From the NCBI RefSeq assembly GCF_045037415.1, contig NZ_CP173438.1: a stretch of 64,000 nucleotides of DNA; one strand, written 5' to 3'. Shown here in pieces: positions 43,582-58,109 of the stretch. A program made the position numbers and the translations under genes. The notes under the pieces were generated by a model that did not search any database, had not been told where the DNA came from, and saw only the letters and a list, made by a program, of their open reading frames with translations. The DNA comes from Escherichia coli (GTDB lineage: Bacteria; Pseudomonadota; Gammaproteobacteria; Enterobacterales; Enterobacteriaceae). The first letter of the stretch is position 1; each line of letters starts with the position of its first letter.

Positions 43582-43752
43582 TTAATGCTTTTTCTCAATC
43601 AACAGATATGGATGGGACCAGTCAGTGACCTCTTTATATGAAAAAAACCCATCGTGCTCCAGTGCGCAAACGCCCTTATGACTGGCAACGTAATCGTAAA
43701 CAGCCCGGCTTTCCAGTCCCTGTAACATGTGCGAAAGCAGCTTTCGGCGCAT
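43582..43752 (-). CDS. Hypothetical 56-aa protein (below ORF-track cut-off)
   Basis: ATG at 43752 gives MRRKLLSHMLQGLESRAVYDYVASHKGVCALEHDGFFSYKEVTDWSHPYLLIEKKH*. I found no recognisable motif, and coding status is uncertain. Confidence 0.25.
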   Translation of the reverse strand: MRRKLLSHMLQGLESRAVYDYVASHKGVCALEHDGFFSYKEVTDWSHPYLLIEKKH

Positions 43753-43870
43753 CACATCTGACTTCCTGCGTTTACTGTCAACAACGGGTAATAAAGTGAT
43801 CCACTAACCGTCACCACCAACGGTTTAATATTGATCCACCTTGTTTACTCAGGATTAGCTTCAGGTATAA

Positions 43871-44177
<307 letters not shown>

Positions 44178-44339
44178 CTATGAAGTGGATAGCTGTAGCA
44201 GCAGGTCCGCTGTTGTGAAGCGAACCTTGATGCCTGCCCGTAGCGGCGGACGCCCATGGCACAGGTGCCGCAGGCGAGCATGCGTTCAACGGAGAGTCGG
44301 GTCCATTAGCTGATGCTGTCAGCGTATTTTTCGAGGAAT

Positions 44340-44543
44340 TTATGTAAGAAGCGTCAAAATGAAAGCGCCAACTAATAATGACAGAATTAATAAAATACCA
44401 GTAAGCGCGTATGCTATACCTTTTCCAATCTCGTTTTTTATGGTACGTCCAATTGAATAAAGGATTAAAGATACCGATAGCAAAACTATCAAAATAAAAC
44501 CATACACTAACGCTGCAAGTGGGCCTGGGTTACTCATAATCAT
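44340..44543 (-). CDS. Hypothetical small membrane protein (two TM helices)
   Basis: 67 aa, with an AAAGG Shine-Dalgarno before the ATG. It has two long hydrophobic segments and lies in an AT-rich context. Confidence 0.45.
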   Translation of the reverse strand: MIMSNPGPLAALVYGFILIVLLSVSLILYSIGRTIKNEIGKGIAYALTGILLILSLLVGAFILTLLT

Positions 44544-45019
44544 CCTTTATGTTTGAAAATATTCTTATTAATACTATGCTGCTTCCTGTCTGATTCTTTT
44601 GGTAGTAATGCTGATGGGAATTTGCAATCACATCTCTCCATGTGTACATATCAGTAGAGAAAATACCTGAAAGTGGTCTCCAGAGGGGCCGCATAATGGG
44701 TCAACATGGTAAATCTTTACCAAGTTTTGATGCTCCGGAAACGCTTAAGGGCCGTAAAATAGAATGGGAATACGAAAATCTCACCCACGGCAACAAGGCA
44801 TACAACGGATACGTGACGGCCATTCTTAACTGAAATGAAGATAGCGATAATCAGGATGGCTAAAATAAAAAACGCAGGTATCAAAATCATTCCCATGACT
44901 CACGCCCCAGTGAAGTAACATATTATTCACAAATAGATTATTTCCCCGCCTCAGCTTAAACGCCTCTGTTGTAACAGTTTATCAACACCGTGAACTATGC
45001 AACTGTGCTTTTTTATGGC

Positions 45020-46415
45020 TTACGCCGCACCGTCCTTTTTAACTTCTCGCCAGATTCGCCATGCCATAAACGCCAGAACGGCAACGCCAAGTATTAACGC
45101 CCCCCACACCAGCAGCGTTTTCCACTGACTTTGTTGTTCGGCTGCCGACGTCGCCGTTAGTCGCAATTCACCGCCGAGAGTTACGCTCTCCTGCGGTATA
45201 GCCCACGGCAGATTATCTATCTCCTGCGTTTTACGCAGCGACGCAGGGATCAACATATCGAGTCCAACATCGGCCTTTTTCGCCGCCCGGTTTCCCCACG
45301 CCAGCATGTAAGGACCTTTGCCTTGCGTGTTAAAAACCAGTTGATAACTGTCGCGCGCACCGCTCAATGCTGGCAATGCCTCCGGCAATCGCGCATTAAT
45401 TGTACGTATTCGAACAGCCTCAACTAACTGGCCAGGAAGACGAATATCTTCTGAACGCTTCCCGTCCAGGCGATACAACACCGTTTTTGTCAGTGACTGC
45501 CAGGGTTCTTTTTCGCCGCTGCGCCAGACCAGTTCCACCGGTAAAACGCCTTCATTTTCCAGATCGATCCGCAACGATGTCAGGGGCTGCGGCTGTGTCC
45601 ATCGCCAGACGGCTTCATCATCCGACACCTTATCCGCCCGAGCGCCAATCACAATACGTTCGGACTCCGGCTCATTACTGTCAGCAATAGCGCTCACGCT
45701 GTTTAACGTCAGTGCCGGGCTTTGCGAGTTGAGGATCACCAGCAGGTAGCGATTTCCTTCAAGTGACAATGTCAGGTTGGTGCTGATGGCGTCCATTTTC
45801 AGACGATCGCTATCCCGCGTCAGATCCATTAACGGCGCATCTTCCTGCACGGGTCGCCAGTAGCGTAAATCACGGCTGACATAAACCGAGGCTTTCCCCT
45901 GCCAGTTGCCCGTCGGCGTCCCCCAGTTCAGACGCAATTGCGTCAGTGAAAGAGAGTCTTTCCTCTCTTCCGGCAACGTCAGTAAATAGCTCTGCCCGAG
46001 CGCAGTGACATCATCGCTTTGCAAATGAATTTCAATACCGTTTTTTGAACGTAAAACAACAGCATCCCCACTACGTTGACCCTCATCACGCGGCGGAACC
46101 GGCGACATATCAAGCGGGAAAAGACGCAGAGCCACTGTCTCTGGCGTAACGGTCTGGGTTTTCTGCGCCACCAGCGCAAACGGCACCATATCCCCCAGAT
46201 GGTTAAAAACCCGCACATCGCGCAAATCCGGCCATGCAGTGCTCTGATACACCACCTGCGGCAGCGAAATGCGATACCAGGGCGAATGCCCCCGTGGTTT
46301 CCAGCGCGACGCCTGTTGCGTAGTCCGTTGGCGCTTCCTTCACTTCATCGCTGCTGACCGCCGCGCCCGCAGTACTCAGTAGCACGCTGCATAACACCGC
46401 TTTCATCCATTTCAT
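45020..46415 (-). pseudogene. Exported protein with C-terminal TM anchor (DUF3999-like from memory), frameshifted in a G5/C5 run
   Basis: ATG at 46415 gives the signal peptide MKWMKAVLCSVLLSTAGAAVSS...VALETTG. The frame then changes at CCCCC 46289-46293 to HSPWYRISLPQVVYQSTAWPD... (ORF 45020..46255). Removing one base restores a single ORF of about 464 aa. Confidence 0.7.
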
Positions 46416-49069
46416 TTTTCTTCTCCCGCTTTGGGCGGTAACGGTGAAAAATACCCGACGATTAGCACCAGAATTGCCACGCCGATAAACGTGACCGCGC
46501 GTGCCAGGCCGCCGCCACGCGCACTGTCTACCAACATCAGTTTCACAATAACAATCCCTAACAATACGGATCCACAAAGCCATTCGCGACGTGAGCAACG
46601 CCGGGTCGCACGTAGCATCACCACTAATGCCGCCAGCATCCAGAACAGGGCAAAACAGGTCTGAATCAGCCGCGAATGCCACAGTGTTTCCGCGCTCCAG
46701 GGCACTTCGCCGTACCAGGCCAATGCGCGCAGCAGGATGCCATTCAGCCACCAGAAGCTAAGCGCCAGCAGTGCAATGAGCGGCCAGGGACGGCATACCG
46801 AAATCTGCACCGGGAAAAAGCGCTGCGAAACGCGATAAAATACAATGAGTCCCAGTAGCGCAAAAGCGGCCCCCTCCTCCAGTGGATTCACCAGCGGCAG
46901 CCAGGTCTGGCGATAAACTACGCCATCCTGCAAATTCGTCAGTACTAGCAGAACAACCAATACCGCAGCTACCGGTATCATCGCCTGAGAAGCGTAGAGT
47001 GCGGGCCAGCTTCGGAATGGCCATAGCTGACGATGAACCGCCTCATGAACGAGAAAGATGAGCAGGCCCCCCGCGGCCATCATCAGGCCGGAGCCCCACG
47101 CCGCCATGCCCCATGGCAGATCTTGCGCAAACCAGAATAGCTCCGCCGCCAGCGCGAGCAGAATCATCCAGAAGAGTGAAAGGTGCGCCAGTCTGGAGAG
47201 GCGCGGCGGCAACGTCTCAGCATCACGCCAGAGCAATGCCCCCGCAGCGGGTAACGCCAGACACCAGGCCAGATTCTGCCAGCCCGCAGCAAAAATCTCA
47301 TGTTGTGAAATTTGAGACAGCAGCATCACCAGCATCGTCGGCCACAGCAACCATTTGCTGACATCCAGCTCCCACCAGGCCAGACGACCAGAGACAATCC
47401 GCCAGCCCCAGACCGATATCGCCATTAACGCCAGCACGCCAGACAGCACCAGCGAGTCCTTTTTCAGCACCAGTTGCGATGCCCCAATGAGCGCGATTAT
47501 CCAGAAGATCAAACCGCCAGCCAACAGAACCCAACTACCCTGCAACTGAATATTGCGCCACAGCCAGGCGGCAGCCAGCCAGCTGAGGCTGAGTACGGCA
47601 AAGATTAGCACCAGAGAAAGCGCGCTCATCCCGTTCATCTGCGCCCACAGCGCGCTGCACACTGCCAGCACCAGCAGCGCAGTGCCGCTATAGCTCATAC
47701 GCCGCTGCTGCTGTTGCACGCCCAGCCAGAGGATGCCGAGACCTTCCAGCGCCCAGGCCATCGCCGTCCAGCGGGCCGAAAGCGCCAGTGGGATAGCGAG
47801 CGTGGTAAATGCCCCACCCAGCGCCAGCGCCGCCAGCACCAGCGGCCTCCCCAAAGAGGGATAGCGACGCAATGCAAGCCATGCTAACGCCAGATAGAAA
47901 CCGCCGTAACCCAGCGCGCTAAGCGCCGGACCATATTCCATATGCCGGGTTATGGCGTACTGCATGCCAAAACCGACCAGCGGCGATGCAAACAACAGCA
48001 CGCCATCAATAATCTGCTTACCTTTCTCCTGTGCTCGTAGCGATAGCGCCACGCTCAGCACACCAAAAATGATCGTATTGGCTATCAGGAAAAGCTGACT
48101 GCTCAGGTAATACTCTGATCGATAGCCGTCGAGTCCCCAAAGACCGCCGATACCAAAGGTAAATAACAGGCCAAGCAGATTAAGCTCGCGCCAGTGTTGC
48201 CAGATGCTGATGGCGAGAATACCGACGGAAAGCAGAAGGTAGAAAGAGAAGAGCGCCACATGACTACCGCCGCCGGTGGAAAGCAACAGCGGTGCCAGAT
48301 AGCCACCGATACTTGCCAGCATCGCGAGGCTGAGCGCTTTTTGCATAATCGCCAGTCCCACGCTCGCCGCGCAAATCGCCACCAGTAATGCAAACGCCAG
48401 CGTCATCGGCAGCATCTGCCAGAGCCAGAATGCGCCAAAAACGGTGAGATAGAGCGTCCCCGTAGCTCCACCCTGTATGATCAGCGCATAAACCAGCTGT
48501 TTATGCCGCAATCGCCAGCCCACTACCAGCAGGGCAATCGCAAACAGCGAAGTCGCCACCAGACGTAGCTCAAGCGGGAACAGGGAGTGTTCAACCGTAT
48601 AACGCAGCAGGAAGGAGAAGCCAAGGAAGAGAAGCAGAATACCCAGCTTTGCCAGCGGGTTGCCCTGCATAAACCAGCGCACCAGGGACGACATCACCCC
48701 ACCAAAAGCGGAAGATTGTTCGACCGCTGGTGTGGGTAGCGCCTCGTTTTGCGGCTTCGGTTGTGGACGCCAGGGGTCAACGGACTCAGGCGTGACATCA
48801 GCCACAGGCTCCGACAGCACGATGTTAACCGCAGGCGAAGACGTTTCAACAGGCACAACCATCTGCGAAACACTCTGCGGCACAGTTGTTACCACTGTGG
48901 CGGGTGCTTCAGTCACACCGCGCTGCTCAAGCACCTCCACCCGGCGACGCAGGGTCGCCAGCTCAGAACGAACAGCCGTGCTGCGGCTGAGCGCGATAAT
49001 CGCGAGGATGGGAACCACCACCAGTGCGAAGAATAAAGCAATGCAGCCAAGGGTTAGCAGCTCATCCAT
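46412..49069 (-). CDS. Large polytopic membrane protein (DUF2339-like from memory)
   Basis: I prefer ATG 49069 (MDELLTLGCIALFF...) over the TTG at 49111. The protein has an N-terminal TM, the coiled segment LATLRRRVEVLEQR and a Pro/Val-rich linker. More than 20 hydrophobic helices follow. The stop abuts the downstream start. Confidence 0.7.
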   Translation of the reverse strand: MDELLTLGCIALFFALVVVPILAIIALSRSTAVRSELATLRRRVEVLEQRGVTEAPATVVTTVPQSVSQMVVPVETSSPAVNIVLSEPVADVTPESVDPWRPQPKPQNEALPTPAVEQSSAFGGVMSSLVRWFMQGNPLAKLGILLLFLGFSFLLRYTVEHSLFPLELRLVATSLFAIALLVVGWRLRHKQLVYALIIQGGATGTLYLTVFGAFWLWQMLPMTLAFALLVAICAASVGLAIMQKALSLAMLASIGGYLAPLLLSTGGGSHVALFSFYLLLSVGILAISIWQHWRELNLLGLLFTFGIGGLWGLDGYRSEYYLSSQLFLIANTIIFGVLSVALSLRAQEKGKQIIDGVLLFASPLVGFGMQYAITRHMEYGPALSALGYGGFYLALAWLALRRYPSLGRPLVLAALALGGAFTTLAIPLALSARWTAMAWALEGLGILWLGVQQQQRRMSYSGTALLVLAVCSALWAQMNGMSALSLVLIFAVLSLSWLAAAWLWRNIQLQGSWVLLAGGLIFWIIALIGASQLVLKKDSLVLSGVLALMAISVWGWRIVSGRLAWWELDVSKWLLWPTMLVMLLSQISQHEIFAAGWQNLAWCLALPAAGALLWRDAETLPPRLSRLAHLSLFWMILLALAAELFWFAQDLPWGMAAWGSGLMMAAGGLLIFLVHEAVHRQLWPFRSWPALYASQAMIPVAAVLVVLLVLTNLQDGVVYRQTWLPLVNPLEEGAAFALLGLIVFYRVSQRFFPVQISVCRPWPLIALLALSFWWLNGILLRALAWYGEVPWSAETLWHSRLIQTCFALFWMLAALVVMLRATRRCSRREWLCGSVLLGIVIVKLMLVDSARGGGLARAVTFIGVAILVLIVGYFSPLPPKAGEEK

Positions 49070-49206
49070 GTTTCCACCGTCGCGGTATAAAGATGGGTCA
49101 GAATGACACAAACTGTTGTATTTGTGCCATATGCATTAGCAAAGCGAGCCGCTTTTTCAGAAAATACCATCAACCTCTGCACGCAGGCAGAAACTGTAAA
49201 ATGCGA

Positions 49207-49888
49207 TTAAAACGCAAAGCACGAACAACCGGGCATTCGTGACCAGAATGTATCTCTGTTTACTTTAAGTGATGAGGTTTTGGATCTACGCACTACTCTT
49301 CCGCTTCTGAGGCATTGCTGCAGCTCTTTTTTTAAAGCTCCCCGGGTTGGTATAAAAAGCGTTTTATAAATCATTTCATGTGACACATGCATTTCCTGAT
49401 TATCGGGATAACAGCGTTTTAGCCAACCGCCAATTTGTTCCGGCGACCAGTCCTGATGCATCTTCTCTGCAATGATTTTACACAATGTGGGGCTTTCAAT
49501 TAGCTTGCAAGGTTTTGGTCTCAGAGCATTTTCCCACGCAGCAGGATCGGCTTTTGCTGCACGGTATTGTTTTGCACCGCCGTGCCTCCTGATCTCGCGG
49601 CTAATCGTTGAGGGAGCTATTGATAATTTAGCAGCGATGTCCCTGATGATGCGTTTTGCTACCAGTCCTCTGGATATCTCCTCTTTTTCATCAAGCGAAA
49701 ACGCTAACCGGTGCCGCTTTCGCACGGGAGGACGGTAGCCACCGGCCTGGTGGATTGTAGGCATGATAGTAGAGTGAAATCTGTCGAACATTCTGGGGGA
49801 TATCATGCAGGGAATCACCTTGCTTATATCTGTCCCAAATAATCACCTTTTGCTCTGGCGTGTAGTTAATACGAGTTCTTCGTTTCAT
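49207..49888 (-). pseudogene. IS30-family transposase, N-terminal HTH portion only, frameshifted and truncated
   Basis: Two overlapping frames. MKRRTRINYTPEQKVIIWDRYKQGDSLHDI is in one frame. ...LSIAPSTISREIRRHGG...WSPEQIGGWLKR...VSHEMIYKTLF is in the other. These resemble the IS30 Tnp N-terminal half, and no DDE domain follows. Confidence 0.75.
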
Positions 49889-50065
49889 GGCAACGTCCCC
49901 CTTGATTAGGGACAGCGTTGCATCGACCCGTTGAACTCACAGCTCAAAGCGGACATGGATCACTTACTGGATATGCACATCGTTCCAATGCGCATATCCC
50001 ATTATGATTGACAACGTAATACGCCCTTATCAGAGATCGCAGATAGTTAAATTCAAGAAAGTAAG

Positions 50066-51463
50066 CTAGTCCTTCACTTTCATCGTGAAACCACGCCAGT
50101 CCGGTAGTGAAAGCGCGCCCGTTGCCACTACCCCATCATGATCCAGCATGCAGACACGACCAGGGTTCATACTGACAACCTCACGGATATACGCCTGCTC
50201 CACACCACAGATCATAAACGCCAACAGTGCCTTATTCCGCGCATATTGATGATGGTGAGTCTTTTCACGCTGATACACCTCACTATTAAGATCCAGTATT
50301 AATCCGACTTCATTAGCGTACCTGTGATAGTTACGCGGTGATGAACAACTCTTGCGGTGTGCGCCATGCACACGTTCCAGCAATGACTCAAGCGCAGATT
50401 TCAATGGACTGATATAACGGTTCCACCAACGCAAAATCTTTAGCGCCTTTTTTTTGCTGTTACCGCACCATCCATACACTTTTGCCCCAAGGCCATCATT
50501 AACACCAATAGTCACACGCCCAATTCTGTAGGTGGTGGTATGGACCATCTGTTTGCACTGTTTACGGGTCAGCCCGGTATGTTCCATCATGGTTTTATAT
50601 ATCGATGACTTCACACGATAATCGACGTCATACTGTCTGAACAGATGGTTCAGACAGGCCAGATTGCACGCTTCGATGTCATAGTTGAGTAACCCGGTCC
50701 GAAATTTAGCTTTGAACTCATTGGGCAGATTCTGGAAAGCTTGATCATAATACCGCCCTCCAAACGTCAGACGATAATGATGGTCGTAAGTGACATATTG
50801 TCCCTCAATCCTGCCATTGTAGAGATGGTTAAGGCTGCGTATTCCTGCGCGGTAATAGTGATCCGGCTCACGGCTACGCAATTCCTTCACAAACTGTATA
50901 CTCATGCGCCCCCGCCCAACTTTGGCCAAGAAGTCCTTTTCCGTTTGTTTTAGGGCCGTCTGGCGTTTCTCTACATCTATCGCATGCCCAGGAGCTTTCC
51001 CGTTCCCCTGAAGCAGAGCTCTAAAACTAACAGACTCACCAGTATCCAAGTCAACCAGATTTAACTTACCCCTGGCAGACTCATCACACACAGGCAGCAG
51101 GGGGTTGAACCGCCATGCACTGGCTCTACGCTTTTCCGGGTCTTTGCTCGCTTTTCCTGCACGAAATTCAATATCCGAAAGTGTCGGCAGGAAATCAGTT
51201 AGCGTGGACATAAAGCACTCCCCCTGGTAACTAATTTCACACTGTCCCAGGAGACTGGCATAGCTGCTACGGATATCCCGGACAGTGCATATAGTCCAGC
51301 CATCATCGTCTGTTTCCAGCCATATGTGAGCCAGGAACCACCGTACTGTCTGCCGCCGGGTAACAGCCCATTGCGTATCCCCCACGACATAATCCGTTAT
51401 TTCAGTAATACGGTCATAAACCCACTTAGGGATCTTCACTGGATAATCCTTTTCAGTACTCAC
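50066..51463 (-). CDS. Stand-alone family-A (Pol I-like) polymerase-domain protein with a novel N-terminal region
   Basis: 465 aa with a GTG start after GAGGGGA. Motifs read directly are NGRIEGQY...FGGRYYDQAFQNLP (cf. TGRxHTSY...TGRLSSxxPNLQNIP) and NYDIEACNL (motif A, DYSQIELR). Also present are RKQCKQMVHTTTYRIG (motif B, R-x3-K-x7-Y-x2-G) and MLDHDGVV (motif C, HDE). Confidence 0.65.
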   Translation of the reverse strand: MSTEKDYPVKIPKWVYDRITEITDYVVGDTQWAVTRRQTVRWFLAHIWLETDDDGWTICTVRDIRSSYASLLGQCEISYQGECFMSTLTDFLPTLSDIEFRAGKASKDPEKRRASAWRFNPLLPVCDESARGKLNLVDLDTGESVSFRALLQGNGKAPGHAIDVEKRQTALKQTEKDFLAKVGRGRMSIQFVKELRSREPDHYYRAGIRSLNHLYNGRIEGQYVTYDHHYRLTFGGRYYDQAFQNLPNEFKAKFRTGLLNYDIEACNLACLNHLFRQYDVDYRVKSSIYKTMMEHTGLTRKQCKQMVHTTTYRIGRVTIGVNDGLGAKVYGWCGNSKKKALKILRWWNRYISPLKSALESLLERVHGAHRKSCSSPRNYHRYANEVGLILDLNSEVYQREKTHHHQYARNKALLAFMICGVEQAYIREVVSMNPGRVCMLDHDGVVATGALSLPDWRGFTMKVKD

Positions 51464-51950
51464 GGTCCCCTCTCAGCATCCTCGTCTCACTACATTAACC
51501 AAACTCAACGCTGGGCAATTCGAAAGTCAAAACCCCAGTCGCGAGGATGGGCTCCGCCCATGATTTGCTCCACTCCGGTCGCAAATCTTTCCCCCTGTTC
51601 AGGCTGACGCCTTCCCTCACTCGCTGCGCTCGTTCGCCGTATCGTTTAATGACATGAGAAGGAGATGAAGCCTCCGTAGTGCTGCATGTCCCCAAGCTCT
51701 CCGTTGCGCTCAATGGCAATGGTGCTCGCTGACCGCTCCCCCCATTGTGTGTAGAATATTCACTGACAGAAACACAGAAAGCCCTCACAGATGCGCTAAC
51801 TCGTCAGTTGATGGTAAGGATCGGGTGTGCAGAGGCATCCGTGAGCCCCTGCAGAAAACAGACGGTTGCGTTAAAATCGAGACAGTTGGAATGTTAAAGT
51901 GCATCAGCGCCATCAAAATCACTGGCAAGCTTTGCAGTTTTACAACAACG

Positions 51951-51995
51951 AAAATGCAGTGGTTGCCGCTGTTATTCGTCGTTCCACTGCAATTT
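51951..51995. repeat. Inverted repeat AAAATGCAGTGG-N21-CCACTGCAATTT in the gap upstream of the polymerase gene
   Basis: 12-bp arms with one mismatch. The same 12-mer AAAATGCAGTGG recurs at 52930-52941. Confidence 0.8.
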
Positions 51996-52039
51996 AATCA
52001 ACAGCAAAAGTGCATTGCAGTTGCTGCATTACCGGTAAA

Positions 52040-52894
52040 TCAGTGCACTTTCCCTGGGGGTTGCCCAAACGAAAAAGAAACGACACCTGTTCCGAGTGAG
52101 TCCAGGGTAAGCAGACTTTTTAACAGTGTCCGGCCTTTCAGTAGCTCCATTCTTGACTTAACAAGAGCGTCTTTATCAGTCAGTGTGTAATCTGCTGTGT
52201 GCCAGACTGGATTCAGGGCGCATGAAATCAGTCTCGCGGGATCTTTATACCTGAGCACGATCACTGGTGTGTTAAGCGTCGATGCATCAATGAATGCCCC
52301 ACCACTTCGCGACATATGCGCTTTTAGCCCCTTAATCAACGTACTGTCATTGGGCAGGAACAAACACAACTGTGGAACCCAGAAAATACGCTCTTCTGGG
52401 CCATCAGGCATATGTCGCATCATACTGAAGGTGCCTGTGGCCGGACCGGCGTACCCCAGGCGGTTAAGTACCCGGCTTATCCTCTGCTTATAACGACCGA
52501 TTTGCGCCCTGAGCGCCCCAATGTTCTTCCATGGCGGCGGAGTTTGCGTATCCTTGTTGAAAAACAGGACCACTCCCACGTATTCTGCTGAATTCCCCGG
52601 CAAGACATGCAACATAGCCAGTTGCGCCAGAATGCGTTCCCGCTGGCAATGCGGGCATATAAGACTGTTGCATGGAGATCCGTTTCTGCACTGCCTTAGT
52701 TTTTGAGCAATGATGTTGTAGCAGCGATTGCTGCCTTTCAGTTTATTTAGTAAATGGTTAAGACGCTGCAGTTCATACTCACTTTCCTGCTGGGTAATAA
52801 TAGTGGGGAATGCTTTACTTAAAATCTCAAGCATTGACGGTGCGTGACGAATGTAATCCGGGTCAGATGTTCTGAAGTAATAAGAATCGTTCAT
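52040..52894 (-). CDS. Hypothetical protein with a CxxxxCPxC zinc-ribbon-like motif (possible replication initiator)
   Basis: 284 aa with AGGAA before the ATG. CNSLICPHCQRERILAQL resembles the Cys motif of some plasmid/phage Rep proteins, but I see no HUH motif. Confidence 0.55.
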   Translation of the reverse strand: MNDSYYFRTSDPDYIRHAPSMLEILSKAFPTIITQQESEYELQRLNHLLNKLKGSNRCYNIIAQKLRQCRNGSPCNSLICPHCQRERILAQLAMLHVLPGNSAEYVGVVLFFNKDTQTPPPWKNIGALRAQIGRYKQRISRVLNRLGYAGPATGTFSMMRHMPDGPEERIFWVPQLCLFLPNDSTLIKGLKAHMSRSGGAFIDASTLNTPVIVLRYKDPARLISCALNPVWHTADYTLTDKDALVKSRMELLKGRTLLKSLLTLDSLGTGVVSFSFGQPPGKVH

Positions 52895-52915
52895 TTAATA
52901 TTCCTAGCTGTATTG

Positions 52916-52950
52916 ATTACCCTGCCACCAAAATGCAGTGGCAGGGTAAT
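52916..52950. repeat. Perfect 13-bp stem hairpin ATTACCCTGCCAC-CAAAATGCA-GTGGCAGGGTAAT
   Basis: Read directly. It lies in the 87-bp spacer between the 155-aa and 284-aa genes, and its loop and right arm contain AAAATGCAGTGG. Confidence 0.9.
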
Positions 52951-52981
52951 ATGTCAGTTTTTCACCATACAGAAATGGCTA

Positions 52982-53449
52982 TTACCCGAATGACCTCGCC
53001 TGAGCATCTTCATGCCGCTCAACTAACTTATTGTAATCCCAATGATAAGAGGAATTTTTGTCGTTTGTTTCTAAAAAATCTAAAAATAACTCAGGCAACT
53101 GATATAAAGCGTATTCCCCGGTTACATCCACCCCCTGATAATGTAATTGCTGAGCGGTAGAACAATATGCACAGGCCCTGCTCCCGCAGGGAATGTATTT
53201 ACAACGCTCAAGGATAAGCGCCAGTTTAGCGTAGTTGCTCCACATGTCATCGGCCCCGCCGCAATCCTGTATGAGAATATTGGACACTGTATATGCAGAT
53301 GCGTAGTTAAGCTTACGTATCCGTAAACGCTGCTCCTTTAACACTGCTGATATCGTTTCTTGTGATAAACCAACCTGTTTCCCCATAGTTTCGAACCAAG
53401 GAACCAGCGTTTTTTTCGCAGAACTGGTTTTCGATTTTATCTCTTTCAT
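52982..53449 (-). CDS. Hypothetical Cys-rich protein
   Basis: ATG at 53449 (MKEIKSKTSSAKK...) lies 1 nt after the alpA stop and is preceded by GGAGA, giving 155 aa. Contains CKYIPCGSRACAYC. Confidence 0.55.
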   Translation of the reverse strand: MKEIKSKTSSAKKTLVPWFETMGKQVGLSQETISAVLKEQRLRIRKLNYASAYTVSNILIQDCGGADDMWSNYAKLALILERCKYIPCGSRACAYCSTAQQLHYQGVDVTGEYALYQLPELFLDFLETNDKNSSYHWDYNKLVERHEDAQARSFG

Positions 53450-53450
53450 T

Positions 53451-53648
53451 TCATTCTCCCGCCTGCATACGGCTGTTAACCCAGTTATTGATATCACTCT
53501 CCAGCCAGCCTACCGCCCGGCCATTGTCGCCCGTTAGCCTCTTTGACAAAGGAAAGAATCCTTTCGAGATGAGTCGGTACAACGTCGCTGACGAGTTCCC
53601 CGTCAGATGAAGTACCTCTTTTTTACGCAAAATACGGTTGGTGTTCAT
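53451..53648 (-). CDS. alpA: AlpA-family phage/island transcriptional regulator (excisionase-like HTH)
   Basis: 65-aa ORF MNTNRILRKKEVLHLTGNSSATLYRLISKGFFPLSKRLTGDNGRAVGWLESDINNWV, a typical AlpA signature. Confidence 0.85.
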   Translation of the reverse strand: MNTNRILRKKEVLHLTGNSSATLYRLISKGFFPLSKRLTGDNGRAVGWLESDINNWVNSRMQAGE

Positions 53649-53714
53649 GCTTGTGCTCCTTTGAGCTGTTTCAGGAGCGGGTTATTTACAACCACCAAAA
53701 AACGCAAGGATTCA

Positions 53715-53735
53715 CTCAACGATGCCTTCGTTGAG
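53715..53735. promoter_or_regulatory. Palindrome CTCAACGA-TGCC-(T)TCGTTGAG in the divergent promoter region
   Basis: An 8-bp inverted repeat between alpA (-) and the 204-aa gene (+). It is a candidate operator. Confidence 0.4.
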
Positions 53736-53870
53736 CACGTTAAGGGCATCTTTAATGTGGATGTCATTCGAGATCATCTATTTCTGTCTCCAGAACGGTC
53801 ATATAAAGAAGCAATTTTCACTGAGGCTCAATGGTGATATTTTGTACAAAACACTGTCATGGAGGTGACT

Positions 53871-54485
53871 ATGATTGGTAACCAAAGCAACAAGGCTGAC
53901 GCCAGATGCCACCGGGAACGGAAAAGCAGTAACGAGGTCTTTGAATTTCTGGAGAAGAAGCTTTATCTGGGACGGGATACCCGGCAAAAACTGGCACTGA
54001 TTGCCCGGAAACTGACGGGAGCGGGTTTTAGCCCGGATAAATTCGCTGCGGAGAAAGCGGCAGATGTGCTGAGTGCCTGCGTGAACCACATGTTTAATGA
54101 CCTGCTCAATGAGGGAGAGCCAAACGGGATTTATAGGCCGGAGGAACACCCCATGATAGTCCCGGCCAGGTCCCCTAAGGCACTGGAAATCTATACTGTT
54201 TACCAGCTTGTAAAAGGTCGTTTTGACAAGCTTCATACGGGGGAGTCAGATCGTGAGAAATATGCTTCGGTAGCAGAAAAACTTAATGAGTATGGAATAT
54301 GGAAACCCCGGTTAAAACGACTCTCTGACGGTAAAGAATGGGCGCGTGAGGATGTTGCGTGGATGCTTCAGCCTGAAAATATCAATGCACAAATTAACAT
54401 CCAGAATCAAAAGTACGCGCGGTTGAGTGCTGAAGATGAAACTGAAACCGAGTCTGGCAACGCCTCAACTGCTAAAAACATCTGA
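53871..54485 (+). CDS. Hypothetical protein
   Basis: The ORF track starts at 53859. ATG 53871 is preceded by GGAGG, giving 204 aa. I recognise no motif. The 3' end overlaps the convergent recombinase gene by 14 nt. Confidence 0.55.
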   Translation: MIGNQSNKADARCHRERKSSNEVFEFLEKKLYLGRDTRQKLALIARKLTGAGFSPDKFAAEKAADVLSACVNHMFNDLLNEGEPNGIYRPEEHPMIVPARSPKALEIYTVYQLVKGRFDKLHTGESDREKYASVAEKLNEYGIWKPRLKRLSDGKEWAREDVAWMLQPENINAQINIQNQKYARLSAEDETETESGNASTAKNI

Positions 54486-55401
54486 TGCGCTTGCTGGCAC
54501 TGATCTTCATAGTATCACCACGACAGTCATAGCGCGTCGTCGTGGATATGTCGCTGTGGCCTGCCAACTGGCGGACGGTATTGATATCCACGCCCTGCTC
54601 CAGCAAACGGGTGATGAAGGTGCGCCGCATATCATGCGGGGTAAAACGTGCTATACCTGCCGTTTGCTGTAACTCAGCCAGGATACCCGTTAACCCGGTC
54701 GTAGTCAGCGGTTGGCTTGCGACCTTACCACTGCGCTGAATTCGCCTAAACAACGCACTGTCAGCCTCGTCTGCGCCAACTTTCAGCCACGCACGAATAG
54801 CCTTGTCCACCGCATCCGCCACGTGAATTTCACGGTATTTACGCCCCTTCCCTTGCCTCACCGTCAGGATGCCGTTGTCATAGTCCCGGCGCTCAAGTTT
54901 AACCAGTTCCCCGGCCCGCAGGCCCGTTCCGCAAAGCATCAGCACAATGGCGACATCGCGACAGCGCCGTACAGATTGCGGATGCTGTTTTGCAGCCTGA
55001 ATCAGTACCCGGATTTCCTGCCTGCCCAGCGCCCTTCCCTTGCGCTGGACATCGCCGCTCACGCGCTTAACTGACCGGATACGTGCCAGCGTTTCGGCAT
55101 CCATGTAATTGAGGTTAAAGGCCGTCTGCGCTACGCCCCGGAGTGCTGACAGCGCCATGTTGACCGATGACACGGCGTAACCGTCATCCAGCAGTGCCGC
55201 GCGCACTTTGGCAACGGCGGCGTAGTTAAGTTGTTCCCACGGATAGTCTGCTGCATCCGCACCGTGTTTAAGTATGCTGGCGCTGCGGTTTAACAGGCTG
55301 GTGATACCTCGCCGTCCCGAGGGGGCCAGACCGACAATATACGCATCGAACACGGTGGTTTGCACCACCGGCACGACCTGACGCAACGCTGTCCTGCTCA
55401 T
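54472..55401 (-). CDS. Tyrosine recombinase (XerC/D-like phage integrase family)
   Basis: Catalytic contexts are TGLRAGE (R), GKGRKYR (K), HDMRRTF (HxxR), GHSDISTT (H) and TRYD (Y). I prefer ATG 55401 to the TTG at 55416. Confidence 0.85.
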   Translation of the reverse strand: MSRTALRQVVPVVQTTVFDAYIVGLAPSGRRGITSLLNRSASILKHGADAADYPWEQLNYAAVAKVRAALLDDGYAVSSVNMALSALRGVAQTAFNLNYMDAETLARIRSVKRVSGDVQRKGRALGRQEIRVLIQAAKQHPQSVRRCRDVAIVLMLCGTGLRAGELVKLERRDYDNGILTVRQGKGRKYREIHVADAVDKAIRAWLKVGADEADSALFRRIQRSGKVASQPLTTTGLTGILAELQQTAGIARFTPHDMRRTFITRLLEQGVDINTVRQLAGHSDISTTTRYDCRGDTMKISASKRIRCF

Positions 55402-55447
55402 GCGCGTAACCCGCAATAACGTACATTAAACCAAGTAACTTTCAGCA

Positions 55448-55900
55448 TCACACCAGTCCTCGCTCAGCCATCGACACCGTTTCAGTTCCTGCCACGATAA
55501 AGTGATCAAGTAACCGCACATCCAGTATTTCCAGCAGCTCCTGAAGCTTTTTGGTCAACTGGATGTCACACCGGCTGGGTTCAGGCTCGCCGCTGGGGTG
55601 ATTATGGACAAGGATGACGGCGGCGGCGTTATGTTTCAGCACACGCTTAATAACTTCACGGGGGTGAACGCTGACCGAGTTTAGCGTACCCCTGAACAGG
55701 ATTTCGCGGTGCAGCAGCTGATTATGATTATCGAGTAGGATGATGCCAAACTCTTCATGTTCAAGCGGTGCCAGCTCAACCATCACGCACCGTCGAACAT
55801 CATCAGGGGAACAGAGTTGAACCCCACGCTGGTAGTACCGGCTAATAATGTCACGCGCCTGGTCAAGGATACGGGTTTCACGCTGGGTAAACATGGTCAT
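55448..55900 (-). CDS. RadC-like JAB/JAMM domain protein (YeeS/YfjY/YkfG family)
   Basis: ATG 55900 lies 1 nt after the upstream stop. The JAMM motif is LVHNHPSGEPEPSRCD. Confidence 0.85.
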   Translation of the reverse strand: MTMFTQRETRILDQARDIISRYYQRGVQLCSPDDVRRCVMVELAPLEHEEFGIILLDNHNQLLHREILFRGTLNSVSVHPREVIKRVLKHNAAAVILVHNHPSGEPEPSRCDIQLTKKLQELLEILDVRLLDHFIVAGTETVSMAERGLV

Positions 55901-55901
55901 G

Positions 55902-56441
55902 TCAGAACTCCCGTTCAATGAAGTAAATGGCGTCTGGAAACAGCTGGCGGCGGGTTACGCCAGTACGCAGGGAGAAAGCTTTACGGGGCATGGTGGTTCG
56001 CCCGTTGCTGTCGAAGAAGCAGAGCATTTCTTCGTCCATTTTGACCAGAAGGGACCAGTGAAACTGGTCGCTGAGCATAATCAGGCGAGAGTGGTCAGTG
56101 ACGTCAAGAAACCGCTGCATTTCCCTGAACAGCCGCCCGTCTGTTAACCCCCGCTTCCCTGCAAAGGGTCTGGTGATTTCAACCGGGAACTGGCGGCGGT
56201 AATGCCCTTTCTGCAACACCTGAGCTATTAACCAGTCTAAGCGGTCTTCTTCAATTCCTTCAGTCAGCCATTCATGCAAAGGCCAGCGCTGCTGATAAGT
56301 CTGAATAAGCCAGTTCATTAACGGGCGTCGTTTCACCCTGCCGTCATACAGCCAGCTCAGCATGTTAACCACGCAATAAGCACCGCAAAGACAGTCCAGT
56401 TCGCCCTGTTGAGACGCACGTATCCCTCTGTCAGTCGTCAC
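55902..56441 (-). CDS. Predicted papain-fold cysteine peptidase-like protein
   Basis: 179 aa with a GTG start after GGGGA. QQGELDCLCGAYC has the Gln-x5-Cys spacing typical of papain-like oxyanion/nucleophile pairs. DQFHWSLLV...FFDSNG supplies candidate His and Asp/Asn residues. Confidence 0.5.
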   Translation of the reverse strand: MTTDRGIRASQQGELDCLCGAYCVVNMLSWLYDGRVKRRPLMNWLIQTYQQRWPLHEWLTEGIEEDRLDWLIAQVLQKGHYRRQFPVEITRPFAGKRGLTDGRLFREMQRFLDVTDHSRLIMLSDQFHWSLLVKMDEEMLCFFDSNGRTTMPRKAFSLRTGVTRRQLFPDAIYFIEREF

Positions 56442-56482
56442 AGATAATTCCCCATAAATTAGTGATGGTTAGTACAGGGGGA

Positions 56483-56905
56483 TTAGCTTTCCCAGAGAAC
56501 GGTAATGGTGTAGATGTTCATGCCGTGATACTGAATAAAGTTGGATTGCCAGAGTTCAAACAGCTCCCTTCCGGCGTTAACAGGCAGGTCACCAACATAA
56601 GCAAGAAAGACATATTGCTGACTCCAGCTGATATCAATTTCCTTTTCAAGTTCGGGGTATACCGTCCCCATATAACTGAAGTCGGTAATGTAATCAAAAT
56701 ACCATTCATCATTGCGTGAAATAATCCGTATTTCGACAGGATGGTAACCACCCTTTTCAGCGCTGTAACTCAGGTCTTTAAATAACAGACTGACGGCTGT
56801 AATTTTGGCTTTATGCGGCGGTGGATTTCCCGCTTCATTTAATATGATATTTATTAATTCCTGATCGACGGGCATAGCTAGCCCTTCCTGATGGACAATA
56901 TTCAT
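56483..56905 (-). CDS. Hypothetical 140-aa protein (possibly DUF2787-like; family recalled with low certainty)
   Basis: AGGAAA precedes the ATG. It is the first gene of the minus-strand operon 56905->54472. Confidence 0.5.
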   Translation of the reverse strand: MNIVHQEGLAMPVDQELINIILNEAGNPPPHKAKITAVSLLFKDLSYSAEKGGYHPVEIRIISRNDEWYFDYITDFSYMGTVYPELEKEIDISWSQQYVFLAYVGDLPVNAGRELFELWQSNFIQYHGMNIYTITVLWES

Positions 56906-57162
56906 CAGTGATTTTCCTGTTCAATATATTCTGATAAGACGTTATGTCTGCACCAGCACAGGTGGGGTTTAATCACCTAATAAATGGTAAGTGCATGACA
57001 ACGTACTGACTGGGTAAAATATAGTTCACCAGCAATATTATTATATCAAAAATATACTTTTTATGCAAATAGTAACAAAGAGAAACTAATATGTGGTTCA
57101 GCAATGAAATAACTGGCAATAGGTTTTTATTCATTATTAAGTGATGGCATACTTTCCATTCT

Positions 57163-57214
57163 GCCATGTCAGACAGGTCAGGATTCCGGGGTGGTTCCTT
57201 CTGTCTGGCATGGC
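57163..57214. repeat. 14-bp-stem inverted repeat just 3' of the c-like repressor gene
   Basis: GCCATGTCAGACAG-N24-CTGTCTGGCATGGC pairs with one G-U. No U-tract occurs on either strand. Confidence 0.7.
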
Positions 57215-57229
57215 GGAAAACTGACGCTA

Positions 57230-57718
57230 TCACACCTTCCCGTTCAGCTTTTCAAAGAGGCGCTTACGCTCATCTTCGGGCAGCTTCATGATTTGTACCG
57301 CCAGTTCAGAAACATTGGGCACCTGAGACATCAGATCGTCCTTTACCAGCCTGAGGGCCTGCTCCATCAGTTGCGCCCGCGAAGCTGGCGACATATTGCG
57401 ATACAGCTGCACCCAGAGGCTTAGCTGGCGATCACTGTCGTTGAGAGTAAACGCTTCGCCCTTAGCCCTGTTTCTCTCATCATCAAGCGACATTGTGGCT
57501 GCGCTAATATGGTAAACCACACCTTTCCCGGCAGTCCTTTTACGACGTATTTCCGGGTGCAGGGATGCCAGCTTTTCCAAGCGCATCCTGGCGCCACGCG
57601 CAGTGCCCGGCATCCCCTCAATATGAGTGAATTCCTCTGCTGTCAGCCAGTCTTTAGCCTCTTCAACAGAAGCTTCAGGATGAGTAGGTATAGCCGAAAC
57701 TGTTCTCTTACTGCTCAT
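57230..57718 (-). CDS. Mu Repc(c)-like DNA-binding repressor
   Basis: ATG 57718 gives 162 aa. EEFTHIEGMPGTARGARMRLEKL...RKRTAGKGVVYH parallels the Mu c repressor N-terminal winged-helix region (...MPGSVAGVHYRA...RKKEGVKGGKAVEY) as I recall it. Confidence 0.6.
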   Translation of the reverse strand: MSSKRTVSAIPTHPEASVEEAKDWLTAEEFTHIEGMPGTARGARMRLEKLASLHPEIRRKRTAGKGVVYHISAATMSLDDERNRAKGEAFTLNDSDRQLSLWVQLYRNMSPASRAQLMEQALRLVKDDLMSQVPNVSELAVQIMKLPEDERKRLFEKLNGKV

Positions 57719-57764
57719 ATAAATTTCACCAGATATCAATGCGTTAATATGAAAACCAATAAAT

Positions 57765-57792
57765 AGATACCAAAAGAACTTGAAAGGTATCT
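57765..57792. promoter_or_regulatory. Inverted repeat AGATACC-N14-GGTATCT in the c/ner divergent intergenic region
   Basis: Read directly. The region also contains three TTAATA(T/C) copies. It is a candidate operator. Confidence 0.4.
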
Positions 57793-57839
57793 TTTATTCG
57801 CATTTAATATCCATGTACTGATTCCATGGAGTTAATACT

Positions 57840-58109
57840 GTGCGTAACTCAACAGCATCGCAGAAAAAGCAAATCAAAGGAAGTTCAGGGAACTGGCATC
57901 GTGCCGATATTGTGGCAGCACTTCACAAGCGAGGGTTAACGCTGGCGTTACTGTCACGCAGTCACGGCCTTGCGCCACGGACATTAAATAACGCCTTAGA
58001 GCGTCATTATCCCAGAGCTGAGCGCATTATTGCCGGGGCTCTGGATACGACACCGGAAACATTATGGCCGGAAAGGTATGCCCTTAAAAATGGACCTAAT
58101 AGCAGGTAA
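57840..58109 (+). CDS. Ner/Nlp(SfsB)-family DNA-binding protein
   Basis: 89 aa. WHRADIVAALHKRGLTLALLSRSHGLAPRTLNNALERHYPRAERIIAGALDTTPETLWPERY is the Ner-like HTH signature. Confidence 0.85.
   Translation: MRNSTASQKKQIKGSSGNWHRADIVAALHKRGLTLALLSRSHGLAPRTLNNALERHYPRAERIIAGALDTTPETLWPERYALKNGPNSR

Follow-up and report, generated by a model that had tools for sequence, protein, structure and literature searches.

A stretch of 64,000 nucleotides (nt) of Escherichia coli DNA (NCBI RefSeq assembly GCF_045037415.1, contig NZ_CP173438.1), called the window below, carries on its minus strand a co-directional gene series that is broken by a gap of 576 bp (51464-52039) between open reading frames (ORFs) of 284 and 465 amino acids (aa). 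An original prediction, made from the sequence alone, had singled out this gap as a candidate origin of replication, with an operator set as the other possibility, on account of a recurring 12-mer and hairpins in and near it. Judged by comparison with related loci, the gap is a strongly conserved, non-coding and cis-acting region that belongs to the gene for the 465-aa protein, a predicted polymerase.

The series is headed by alpA (53451..53648, minus strand; 65 aa), which matches Pfam Phage_AlpA (PF05930, E 2.6e-12). Next come a 155-aa Cys-rich ORF (52982..53449, minus strand) and the 284-aa ORF (52040..52894, minus strand), which encodes an N-terminal Cys4 zinc (Zn) ribbon. Beyond the gap lies the 465-aa ORF (50066..51463, minus strand), whose product appears to join a winged-helix-like N-terminal region to a minimal family-A polymerase palm and fingers at its C terminus. 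The ORFs and the Pfam match bear out the minus-strand order given originally, namely alpA, a 155-aa Cys-rich protein, a 284-aa protein and a Pol A-like protein.

Anatomy of the conserved gap

The region was compared across 25 loci from genomes and metagenomes (numbered with an L where a single locus is meant), in which the polymerase is 45-100% identical. They represent Escherichia, Salmonella, Citrobacter, Cedecea, Yersinia, Serratia, Budvicia, Edaphovirga and Pectobacterium. A gap of ~350-700 bp lies 5' of the polymerase gene in every locus examined, and it contains blocks that are 90-100% identical where the polymerase is 53-64% and the flanking proteins are 40-60% identical. Such conservation of primary sequence across genera suggests contact with conserved host machinery as well as with island proteins.

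The absence of a convincing ORF from the gap, as originally claimed, was confirmed. Some records call a 97-aa ORF (51495-51788, minus strand) as a gene. From one locus to another the conserved nucleotides lie in different frames that contain stops, and most insertions and deletions are not multiples of three, which argues that the gap is non-coding and that the 97-aa ORF is no gene. Searches for known elements returned nothing: the covariance models of Rfam 15 gave no match at E<=1 on either strand of window positions 44000-58000, and blastn of the gap against plasmids and phages found only the island's own copies or chance matches of 39 nt.

The best-conserved sequences in the gap had been overlooked. 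They are a 21-mer (51735..51754, minus strand; CTACACAC(A/T)ATGGGGGGAGC), directly preceded by an AT-rich tract of 5-6 nt and proposed here as a start or recognition site, and a leader of ~230 nt that runs to 51520. The window has one copy of the 21-mer (a lone match at <=3 mismatches, with none expected), and the sequence is nearly invariant, because almost every related locus examined has it with at most one base change and plus or minus one G. The exception is L009, in which the polymerase is 45% identical (CTACTCACTATGGGGCC). Variant forms include CTACACAT in clade 2, whose members lack Zn-ribbon genes, CTGCACAC in L042 and CTACTCAC...GGGGCC in L009. The 21-mer pattern had 22 metagenome matches, of which 10 were chance occurrences without a polymerase, and scans of viral contigs for the 21-mer and for the polymerase paralogue described below yielded nothing relevant.

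An ATG inside the 21-mer opens ORFs that are unlike one another. In the window (51744-51710, minus strand) the peptide is MGGAVSEHHCH, in clade 2 it is MGGARPPPI, each then meeting a stop, and in L003 and L004 more than 100 codons are fused to the polymerase. No Shine-Dalgarno sequence precedes this ATG, and a leaderless start there is possible.

Three small hairpins follow on the minus strand. The first, H1 (51717..51747), pairs CAATGG with CCATTG around a G-run and a conserved loop, GGGGAGCGGTCAGCGAGCA; in general terms, (C)(A/T)ATGG pairs with CCAT(T/A)(G) ~20 nt downstream. Its stem covaries across separate lineages (CAATGG/CCATTG, CTATGG/CCATAG, AATGGG/CCCATT and TATGGGG/CCCCATA), and pair 19:49 is AU in 13 sequences and UA in three, with clade 2 and L009 read directly. 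After a variable stretch comes block B (51602..51636; CGAACGAGCGCAGCGAGTGAGGGAAGGCGTCAGCC), which contains CGAACGAGCGnAGCGAGTGAG..AGGCGTnAGCC and is the best-conserved part of the leader in clade 1. It is followed by H2 (51562..51587; GATTTGC-N12-GCAAATC) and H3 (51547..51561; ATGGGC-GGA-GCCCAT), where compensatory changes occur at 189:214 (GC in 10 sequences, AU in five) and at 216:233 (UA, GU and UG). In an alignment of 16 sequences, 96% of the hairpin cells pair and five pairs (15 cells) change on both sides. None of 500 shuffles reached the covariation score, and slid controls paired at ~30%. Resemblances of H3 and the bases after it to the ColE1 ori (GGGCGGAGCC), and to lambda cos, were dismissed because those bases vary among relatives.

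A globally structured leader RNA was rejected, since the whole leader folds no better than its shuffles (z +0.78 for the sense and -0.01 for the antisense strand). It is the sequence of the leader that is conserved, along with a few local hairpins, and the RNA is not compactly structured. Its small covarying hairpins, with G.U/G.T wobbles in the sense strand only, fit a displaced single strand or a transcript and not a cruciform. The sense strand of the leader is G-rich, with a GC skew of -0.12 to -0.32 on the plus strand. The remaining 3' part of the gap (51464..51546, minus strand) is variable and holds a weak terminator-like site (51546-51533) and the ribosome-binding region of the polymerase gene; in relatives, the last 60-170 nt before the start codon differ widely in length and sequence.

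Upstream of the 21-mer, the gap carries an ordered array of half-sites. The 12-mer of the original prediction, AAAATGCAGTGG, does occur exactly at 51951-51962 and 52930-52941 (both plus strand), with an inverted copy at 51984-51995 that has one mismatch, and there are no further copies with <=1 mismatch in the 64 kb. Its inverted pair, however, is made of the two middle members of the array, and the 12-mer itself is not a conserved unit. The true conserved unit is the half-site AAAnTGCA/TGCAnTTT, present in six copies between 51896 and 52051. On the plus strand these read AAAGTGCA (51896-51903), TGCAGTTTT (51933-51941), AAAATGCA (51951-51958), TGCAATTT (51988-51995), AAAAGTGCA (52006-52014) and TGCACTTT (52044-52051), the last lying within the 3' end of the 284-aa gene. 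They alternate in orientation and start 37, 18, 37, 18 and 38 bp apart, which makes three units of ~55 bp. The 166 nt from 51890 to 52055 contain eight TGCA tetramers where 0.71 are expected (Poisson 9e-7), the densest such cluster in the window.

The array is also kept in register with the 21-mer. Measured from it, the half-sites stand at -300, -263, -244, -207, -189 and -152, distances that are fixed in relatives. The core at -207/-189/-152 is constant within 2 nt, and at least two of its three sites occur in every locus down to 53% polymerase identity. Considered as iterons, the six half-sites are regularly spaced (37/18) and in register, but they are inverted in alternation rather than direct, and they are missing from the clade without Zn-ribbon genes. 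The array occurs in all 20 loci that have a gene of the 284-aa type and in none of the five that have no such gene. As the loci fall into no more than two or three clades, few independent events stand behind this pattern. The 284-aa protein is, on these grounds, a candidate binder of the array.

The second exact 12-mer lies in a hairpin between the two Cys-rich genes (52916..52950, minus strand). This structure is real, as had been claimed, with perfect 13-bp arms at 52916-52928 and 52938-52950. Its outer 9-bp stem (ATTACCCTG/CAGGGTAAT) is kept in the nine relatives compared, and its inner stem is held in relatives as G.U wobbles on the gene-sense strand only, which points to a sense-strand structure acting at the RNA level. 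The loop is variable. In the window it amounts to a seventh half-site (TGCATTTT), and this copy of the 12-mer, absent in close relatives, is lineage-specific.

Several other features surround the array. A conserved block at 51846..51908 (minus strand; gene sense GCTGATGCACTTTAACATTCCAACTGTCTCGATTTTAACGCAACCGTCTG) is common to all clade-1 loci (alignment A2), and its TTTAAAA...CTAAC part can be recognized by eye even in the clade without Zn-ribbon genes; it may be a promoter or a site for an architectural protein. In loci without Zn-ribbon genes (L007 at ~5650-5680, L010, L013, L014 and L009), alpA is followed at once by TTTTCCATTTTTAAAAATGGAAAA, a perfect AT palindrome of 24 bp, and then by ACACTAACCCATTGAATG. 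In L009, TTTGCAGTGCCAAA-N6-TTTGGCACTGCAAA adjoins the 21-mer. At about window position 51821, between the array and the 21-mer, the match to some E. coli genomes is broken and continues at two places in the record, which suggests an insertion inside the gap in those genomes.

The polymerase-like protein and its island

The 465-aa protein has gone unnoticed by annotation. It had no match in Pfam, NCBIfam, PADLOC, PHROGs or PDB sequences, and a search of PDB sequences with a profile of the family gave nothing meaningful. The 155-aa and 284-aa proteins and a 208-aa protein likewise had no match in Pfam, NCBIfam, PADLOC or PHROGs; the sole matches in these family scans were alpA, an IS30 fragment and DUF2339. 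Homologs of the 465-aa protein form 78 clusters at 45-100% identity, every one labeled "hypothetical," in Escherichia, Salmonella, Citrobacter, Raoultella, Yersinia, Pectobacterium and Serratia. Current annotation cannot see the family, which has no Pfam, NCBIfam, PHROG or PDB sequence relative. Just 71 relatives, the remote ones ~450-600 aa long, turned up when 1.8 billion representatives were searched with a profile, and ten remote relatives scanned against Pfam contained no domain. Many homologs start 11 codons downstream, at a GTG at 51430.

Structural comparison was more informative. Foldseek against viral models placed uncharacterized jumbo-phage proteins at the top, followed by phage family-A DNA polymerases, and the fold has family-A palm and fingers and is not that of a reverse transcriptase; no reverse transcriptase Pfam or PADLOC match was found either. 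The invariant residues are NYD262I..C, R300K..K304 and LD441HDG (D441-H442-D443-G444), spaced like family-A motifs A, B and C. The motifs were assigned by eye from the alignment, with a motif C of HDG, not HDE, and a variable motif-B Tyr. The fifth residue past the motif-A Asp is N, S or C, not the steric-gate Glu of family-A DNA polymerases, as read from motif spacing in the alignment without superposition. Fold matches and motif spacing thus uphold the earlier "Pol A-like" call. The protein is predicted to be a minimal family-A catalytic core fused to a winged-helix-type N terminus and to have polymerase activity, and in these models DNA polymerases appear to be closer structural relatives than single-subunit RNA polymerases.

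Two kinds of damaged or altered allele were encountered. One very common allele (a cluster of 1010 members, 92% identity) differs only in a stretch of ~30 residues in the N-terminal domain and looks like a double frameshift. In L001 (9067-11718; E. coli ST131 MB1341), the insertion sequence ISEc52 (~1.25 kb) splits the polymerase gene, which is intact in the window. Among the matches listed, all 25 E. coli records at >=99% identity, mostly ST131, have the gene interrupted by ISEc52. The island therefore persists without its polymerase in most ST131 genomes.

Some islands carry a second, 24-33% identical polymerase paralogue (L006 8215-9666; L009 1381-2889, minus strand; L044 7279-8131; L003 9378-9989; window 43585-43785, minus strand). 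The remnant in the window is a 69-aa C-terminal piece with 43% identity to the L006 paralogue (E 2e-12), which itself matches phrog_30690, a family of unknown function. The paralogue lies beyond the cargo in L044, L003 and the window, directly after the polymerase in L006 and upstream of alpA in L009; where it is downstream of the cargo, variable genes lie between two polymerase genes. The regions upstream of the paralogue (L006 7960-8214; L009 2890-3650, minus strand) are long, non-coding and AT-rich, with TATATA/TATACA repeats and a common ATAGCTAYA. The 24%-identical L006 paralogue is preceded at 8088 by CTACACAGCGTAATAGAGCGGGTGAGCGAG, a relative of the main gap's 21-mer and H1 loop. Between polymerase and paralogue, L006 also has two direct repeats of ~130 bp (7461-7600 and 7729-7860; cagacgccaaRaatccaaaggcagaa...ctctggtggtattggtag). 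Jumbo phages of Yersinia, Dickeya and Erwinia (~250-265 kb; OR620964.1 99598-101193, MH460460/61, MZ4437xx) encode homologs of the paralogue and, more weakly, of the window protein. These are annotated as hypothetical and sit in tightly packed operons with no upstream leader.

Of the neighboring genes, the 284-aa family has C69, C75 and C80 invariant in its ribbon and C83 in >=90% of sequences. Inspection of alignment A5 by eye found no HUH or primase motifs, and the structure model was unusable, with a predicted local distance difference test score (pLDDT) of 41. The 155-aa protein looks by eye like a short relative of the N-terminal Cys4 ribbon (C-x4-C-x4-C-x2-C), although tblastn with the 284-aa protein did not match it. 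Its slot holds a full-length paralogue of ~283-306 aa in L003-L006 and L044. Since it has the same ribbon and occupies that slot, the 155-aa gene looks like a truncated copy of a 284-aa-family paralogue.

Gene order in the 25 loci is constant: alpA, zero to two Zn-ribbon genes (~285-300 aa), the gap, the polymerase and then variable cargo. alpA lies 5' of the polymerase in L002-L016 and L040-L044, which are most of the loci with upstream flank recovered. Upstream of the module are a tyrosine recombinase of ~305-314 aa, RadC, DUF2787 and helix-turn-helix genes. The cargo includes type I restriction-modification, SIR2, Gabija-like OLD/UvrD, DUF4365 and methylase genes, and in the window DUF2339/DUF3999. 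A constant module beside int and alpA with varying cargo marks the module as the island core, bordering a hotspot for cargo. Of 5426 complete E. coli genomes, 584-595 contain the region, ~506 of them at >=99% identity.

In the window, the cargo downstream of the polymerase begins with a fragment of an IS30-family transposase (49207-49818, minus strand), followed by the DUF2339 and DUF3999 membrane-protein genes (46412-49111 and 45020-46255); the latter is frameshifted in ST131. A gene divergent from alpA (53859-54485, plus strand; 174-222 aa among islands) is conserved in nearly all islands and has a weak Pfam "Recombinase" match (E 0.0056) that falls below the cutoff.

A proposed replication origin and the readings that compete with it

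The likeliest role of the gap is that of a vegetative replication origin, together with its control array, in AlpA-regulated integrative islands; the origin would be of the transcript- or Pol I-primed kind. We hold this interpretation tentatively and would place it somewhat short of an even chance. It fits the position of a single-copy element in the conserved core next to int and alpA, with the cargo varying downstream. The origin proposed at first finds partial agreement here: an ssiA-like block, a G-rich sense strand, a winged-helix and polymerase neighbor and the single copy speak for it, and the lack of an AT-rich unwinding element, DnaA boxes and direct iterons speaks against it.

The ssiA-like block came from a comparison with ColE1 (NC_001371). 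For origins of that type, published accounts go no further than placing an ssi or primosome site a short way downstream of oriV, where it is used to prime the lagging strand once Pol I has extended the primer (PMC3167613; PMC5935869). The best pairwise blastn match of the whole gap to ColE1 is 1327-1350 (20/24), and a profile of clade-1 leaders (nhmmer) matches 1321-1350 with E 0.0067. In Smith-Waterman alignments the L006 leader is identical at 26 of 29 positions (score 43, against 19.2+-2.4), and none of 300 dinucleotide shuffles reached the score of L006 or that of L003. For three other clade-1 leaders, including that of the window, 2-8 of 300 shuffles did so. In ColE1, 1321-1350 is found on the RNA II-sense (displaced) strand, 114-143 nt beyond the RNA/DNA switch. 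Block B starts ~108 nt after the G-run in the window and ~75 nt after it in L003, in the same orientation. ColE1 1321-1350 probably falls inside the L-strand n'-pas/ssiA. Read by eye, the 9-mer AGCGAAGCG is shared with the phiX174 primosome site. Block B is a candidate primosome-assembly or single-strand-initiation site, a lead that has statistical support and is not proof.

What the analysis shows is conservation, non-coding nature, site anatomy and spacing, hairpin covariation, co-occurrence, family-A fold and ColE1-block similarity; the mechanism proposed beyond these, in four steps, is inferred throughout. Once the island is induced or excised, a transcript that begins at the 21-mer or comes from the alpA operon would cross the G-rich leader. 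The winged-helix N terminus of the 465-aa protein would dock on the 21-mer and H1, and its family-A domain would extend a primer there. This primer might be made by the enzyme, or it might be a transcript in an R-loop, the arrangement of ColE1, phage T7 and mitochondrial origins. The displaced gene-sense strand could then fold H1-H3 and expose the ssiA/n'-pas-like block B, where host PriA, DnaB and DnaG would load for lagging-strand synthesis before a handover to Pol III. Finally, Zn-ribbon proteins (the 284-aa family and perhaps the 155-aa protein) may bind the TGCA array 150-300 bp upstream, either as initiators or for copy-number or operator control.

A number of observations weigh against an origin. 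There is no AT-rich unwinding element (the lowest GC fraction over 100 nt is 0.42-0.44 in the gap and 0.50-0.59 in the leader), and no DnaA box or classical direct iteron was seen on reading the gap. Class B (ColE1-type) origins need neither an AT-rich unwinding element nor DnaA boxes. The ColE1 similarity is short (20-26 of 24-29 nt), Smith-Waterman alignment gave no signal for it in clade-2 leaders or L009, the block is absent from the minimal alpA-gap-polymerase clade, and the leader profile did not match the phiX174 primosome site. No homology to RNA II or RNA I was found (Rfam including RNAI at E<=1; blastn against ColE1-type plasmids in PLSDB). No helicase or primase gene was seen among the annotated core island genes of the loci examined, we know of no family-A polymerase that serves as a plasmid or island initiator, and the literature searched does not report replication of these islands. 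The persistence of the island without its polymerase gives no positive support, and is compatible with a replication gene needed solely for transfer.

The main rival explains the gap as a promoter and operator with a 5' leader, and no role in replication; we consider it somewhat less probable than an origin. The array would be an operator or enhancer bound by Zn-ribbon proteins or AlpA, the 21-mer a core promoter and the hairpins part of a 5' untranslated region that affects stability, pausing or antitermination. An ordered array at a fixed distance from the 21-mer does resemble the upstream regulatory sites of one promoter, and the gap sits inside a co-directional gene series. In the window an AT-rich hexamer, TATTCT, ends 7 nt before the ATG/G-run, so that a start is geometrically possible. 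The adjacent H2 and H3 recall the layout of RNA elements that act on RNA polymerase, such as HK022 put, and the hallmarks of an origin (a DNA unwinding element, DnaA boxes) were not found in the gap. However, a consensus scan of the gene strand found no sigma-70 promoter, and relatives do not keep the putative -10. By reading, RfaH ops and a sigma-54 promoter are absent as well. A lone plus-strand sigma-70 site overlapping the 21-mer (51729-51757) was set aside because its -35 is not conserved in relatives. Moreover, the conserved end of the leader is its 5' end and the part near the ribosome-binding site is variable, the reverse of translational control elements. The 90-100% identity of loops and block B across genera exceeds what a simple untranslated region needs, and the ColE1 ssiA-like block would be left unexplained. 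An operator set remains a live reading for the distal half of the gap. The earlier view of the gap as a cis-acting element is supported by its conservation, its link to the polymerase, the ordered half-sites, the conserved hairpins and the co-occurrence of array and 284-aa family; what that view missed is the 21-mer and leader.

A further proposal makes the leader a non-coding RNA that is cut out or separately terminated. Like the RNAs of retrons (msr/msd) or of DRT2/DRT9, it would supply the family-A enzyme with a template or primer, and the two would make up a defense or accessory system. Its attraction is a conserved non-coding element directly 5' of a nucleic-acid polymerase gene, with covarying sense-strand hairpins, in islands packed with defense systems. 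Family-A polymerases are able to copy RNA, and the subclade of the window has the weak terminator-like site after H3. Nevertheless, we regard it as unlikely, chiefly because the leader folds no better than shuffled sequence, unlike retron and DRT RNAs. There is also no Rfam match at E<=1 and no PADLOC match, the polymerase and leader form a fixed core beside alpA in every island rather than swappable cargo, and the jumbo-phage homolog has no such leader.

The missing steric gate invites another proposal, that the 465-aa protein is a self-contained initiating polymerase, without a sugar steric gate, which would bind the 21-mer and initiate chains de novo at the G-run, thereby both priming and launching the island's replication, or its transcription, from a T7-promoter-like site. 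We give this a small chance. If true, it would link DNA polymerases of the Pol I type to single-subunit RNA polymerases of the T7 type as a cellular or island-borne intermediate, and would define a new class of replicon whose initiator is a family-A polymerase.

A narrower version, in which the protein is a promoter-specific RNA polymerase or primase that uses the 21-mer as promoter to drive its own gene and the cargo, or to prime replication, seems improbable. It is in keeping with the order of AT-rich tract, CTACACAC, (A/T)AT and G-run start, similar to the T7-type CACTATA-GGGAGA, and with the HDG of motif C and the N/S/C replacing the steric-gate Glu (alignment A1, from motif spacing). L009 has TTTTACTACTCACTATGGGG against TAATACGACTCACTATAGGG of T7, as well as ACTACTCACTATGGGG, and the 21-mer shifts as the polymerase diverges (CTACTCAC in L009, CTACACAT in clade 2, CTACACAG before the paralogue). 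Yet ungapped matches to the T7/T3/SP6/K11 promoter consensus reach only 14-16 of 23 positions, which random positions equal or beat in each ~12-kb locus. Going by its size, the protein is without the specificity loop, intercalating hairpin and N-terminal domain that T7 RNA polymerase relies on, there is one copy of the motif per island, and H1 includes bases upstream of the G-run that would be outside an RNA starting at the first G.

A transfer or packaging signal, with the 21-mer and hairpin as an oriT nick region or a pac/cos-type site for a helper plasmid or phage, would explain invariance across hosts. A hairpin beside an invariant sequence is the usual oriT layout, the islands look mobilizable (an integrase and alpA without transfer genes), and polymerase homologs occur in jumbo phages of Erwinia, Dickeya and Yersinia. 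We judge it very improbable all the same. No relaxase- or terminase-related gene was found, no plasmid or phage record resembles the gap, the element keeps its tight association with the polymerase gene even in the minimal alpA-gap-polymerase form, and the distant paralogue has its own related upstream sequence. Least credible of all is a decayed coding sequence, from a small gene or an N-terminal extension of the polymerase: the 97-aa ORF called in some records, the invariant ATG in the 21-mer and the 556-aa ORF that runs in frame from it into the polymerase in L003 and L004 are outweighed by the shifting frames with stops and non-triplet indels, by unrelated peptides after MG(G) with no Shine-Dalgarno sequence at the ATG, and by conservation far above that of the neighboring real genes, which decay would not lead one to expect.

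If the gap is indeed a replication origin, then about one in nine complete E. coli genomes, including the pandemic ST131, has an island core that is an unrecognized replication module, and the same module is present in Salmonella, Yersinia, Citrobacter, Serratia and other Enterobacterales. With variable anti-phage systems directly downstream, induction, amplification and movement of the island would bear on the spread of defense genes. The ~600 bp and three small genes would also offer a test bed for targeting a family-A polymerase to a specific start, a matter that touches on ColE1-type priming and on how T7-type RNA polymerases arose.

Comparison with known systems

The closest parallel to the proposed origin is the class B theta origin of ColE1/pMB1, with its RNA II, Pol I and ssiA. 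Shared features are a family-A polymerase, a G-rich sense strand with R-loop-type priming (proposed here for the island), small hairpins on the displaced strand, and block B itself, which matches ColE1 1321-1350 on the corresponding strand and lies about as far from the proposed start. Unlike ColE1, the island is chromosomal and encodes its polymerase beside the origin, with a DNA-binding domain attached. It has no RNA I/RNA II homology, Rom or terH, and it has instead an upstream half-site array and Zn-ribbon proteins.

The primary origin of phage T7 and the mitochondrial LSP/CSB origin likewise combine a family-A enzyme with a specific promoter-like site followed by a G-rich tract, and the 21-mer has the general T7-type layout. 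The island differs in that one 465-aa protein would replace separate RNA and DNA polymerases, and in that no helicase-primase is encoded; its promoter resemblance does not rise above background. ColE2-type origins consist of a short specific origin that is read by a plasmid-specific primase, after which Pol I takes over. They resemble the island, as proposed here, in having a short, invariant and unique start beside the gene of its reader, and in the involvement of family A. The ColE2 Rep is not of the family-A fold, and no similarity in sequence was found, though no direct comparison of the two was made.

Retrons and DRT2/DRT9 systems also place a conserved non-coding element directly 5' of a polymerase gene, on the same strand and in defense-rich islands. 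Here the polymerase belongs to family A and is not a reverse transcriptase, the leader is not thermodynamically structured, and the module is island core, not cargo.

In its genomic setting, the module most resembles those of alpA-bearing islands and satellites (PIME repA-oriV, SGI1, PICI pri-rep-ori and P4 alpha-ori/crr), which likewise combine int, alpA, a replication-type gene next to a non-coding repeat region, and defense hotspots. PIMEs are alpA-bearing islands that have a rep gene with an adjacent oriV, and their replication modules occupy this core position (10.64898/2026.01.12.698999). Pseudomonas islands with IntY, AlpA and RadC are transduced by a jumbo phage (PMC12595487). Among the alpA/int islands with replication modules and defense hotspots found in the literature, none has a family-A polymerase. 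The present islands differ from PIMEs, SGI1, PICIs and P4 in having a family-A fold in place of a RepA/Rep_3 initiator or primase-helicase, alternating inverted half-sites in place of direct iterons, and a conserved region that is upstream, not downstream, of the gene. Islands that pair alpA and int with a replication module were therefore already known; what would be new, on the origin reading, is a replication and control module with an unprecedented protein and type of origin.

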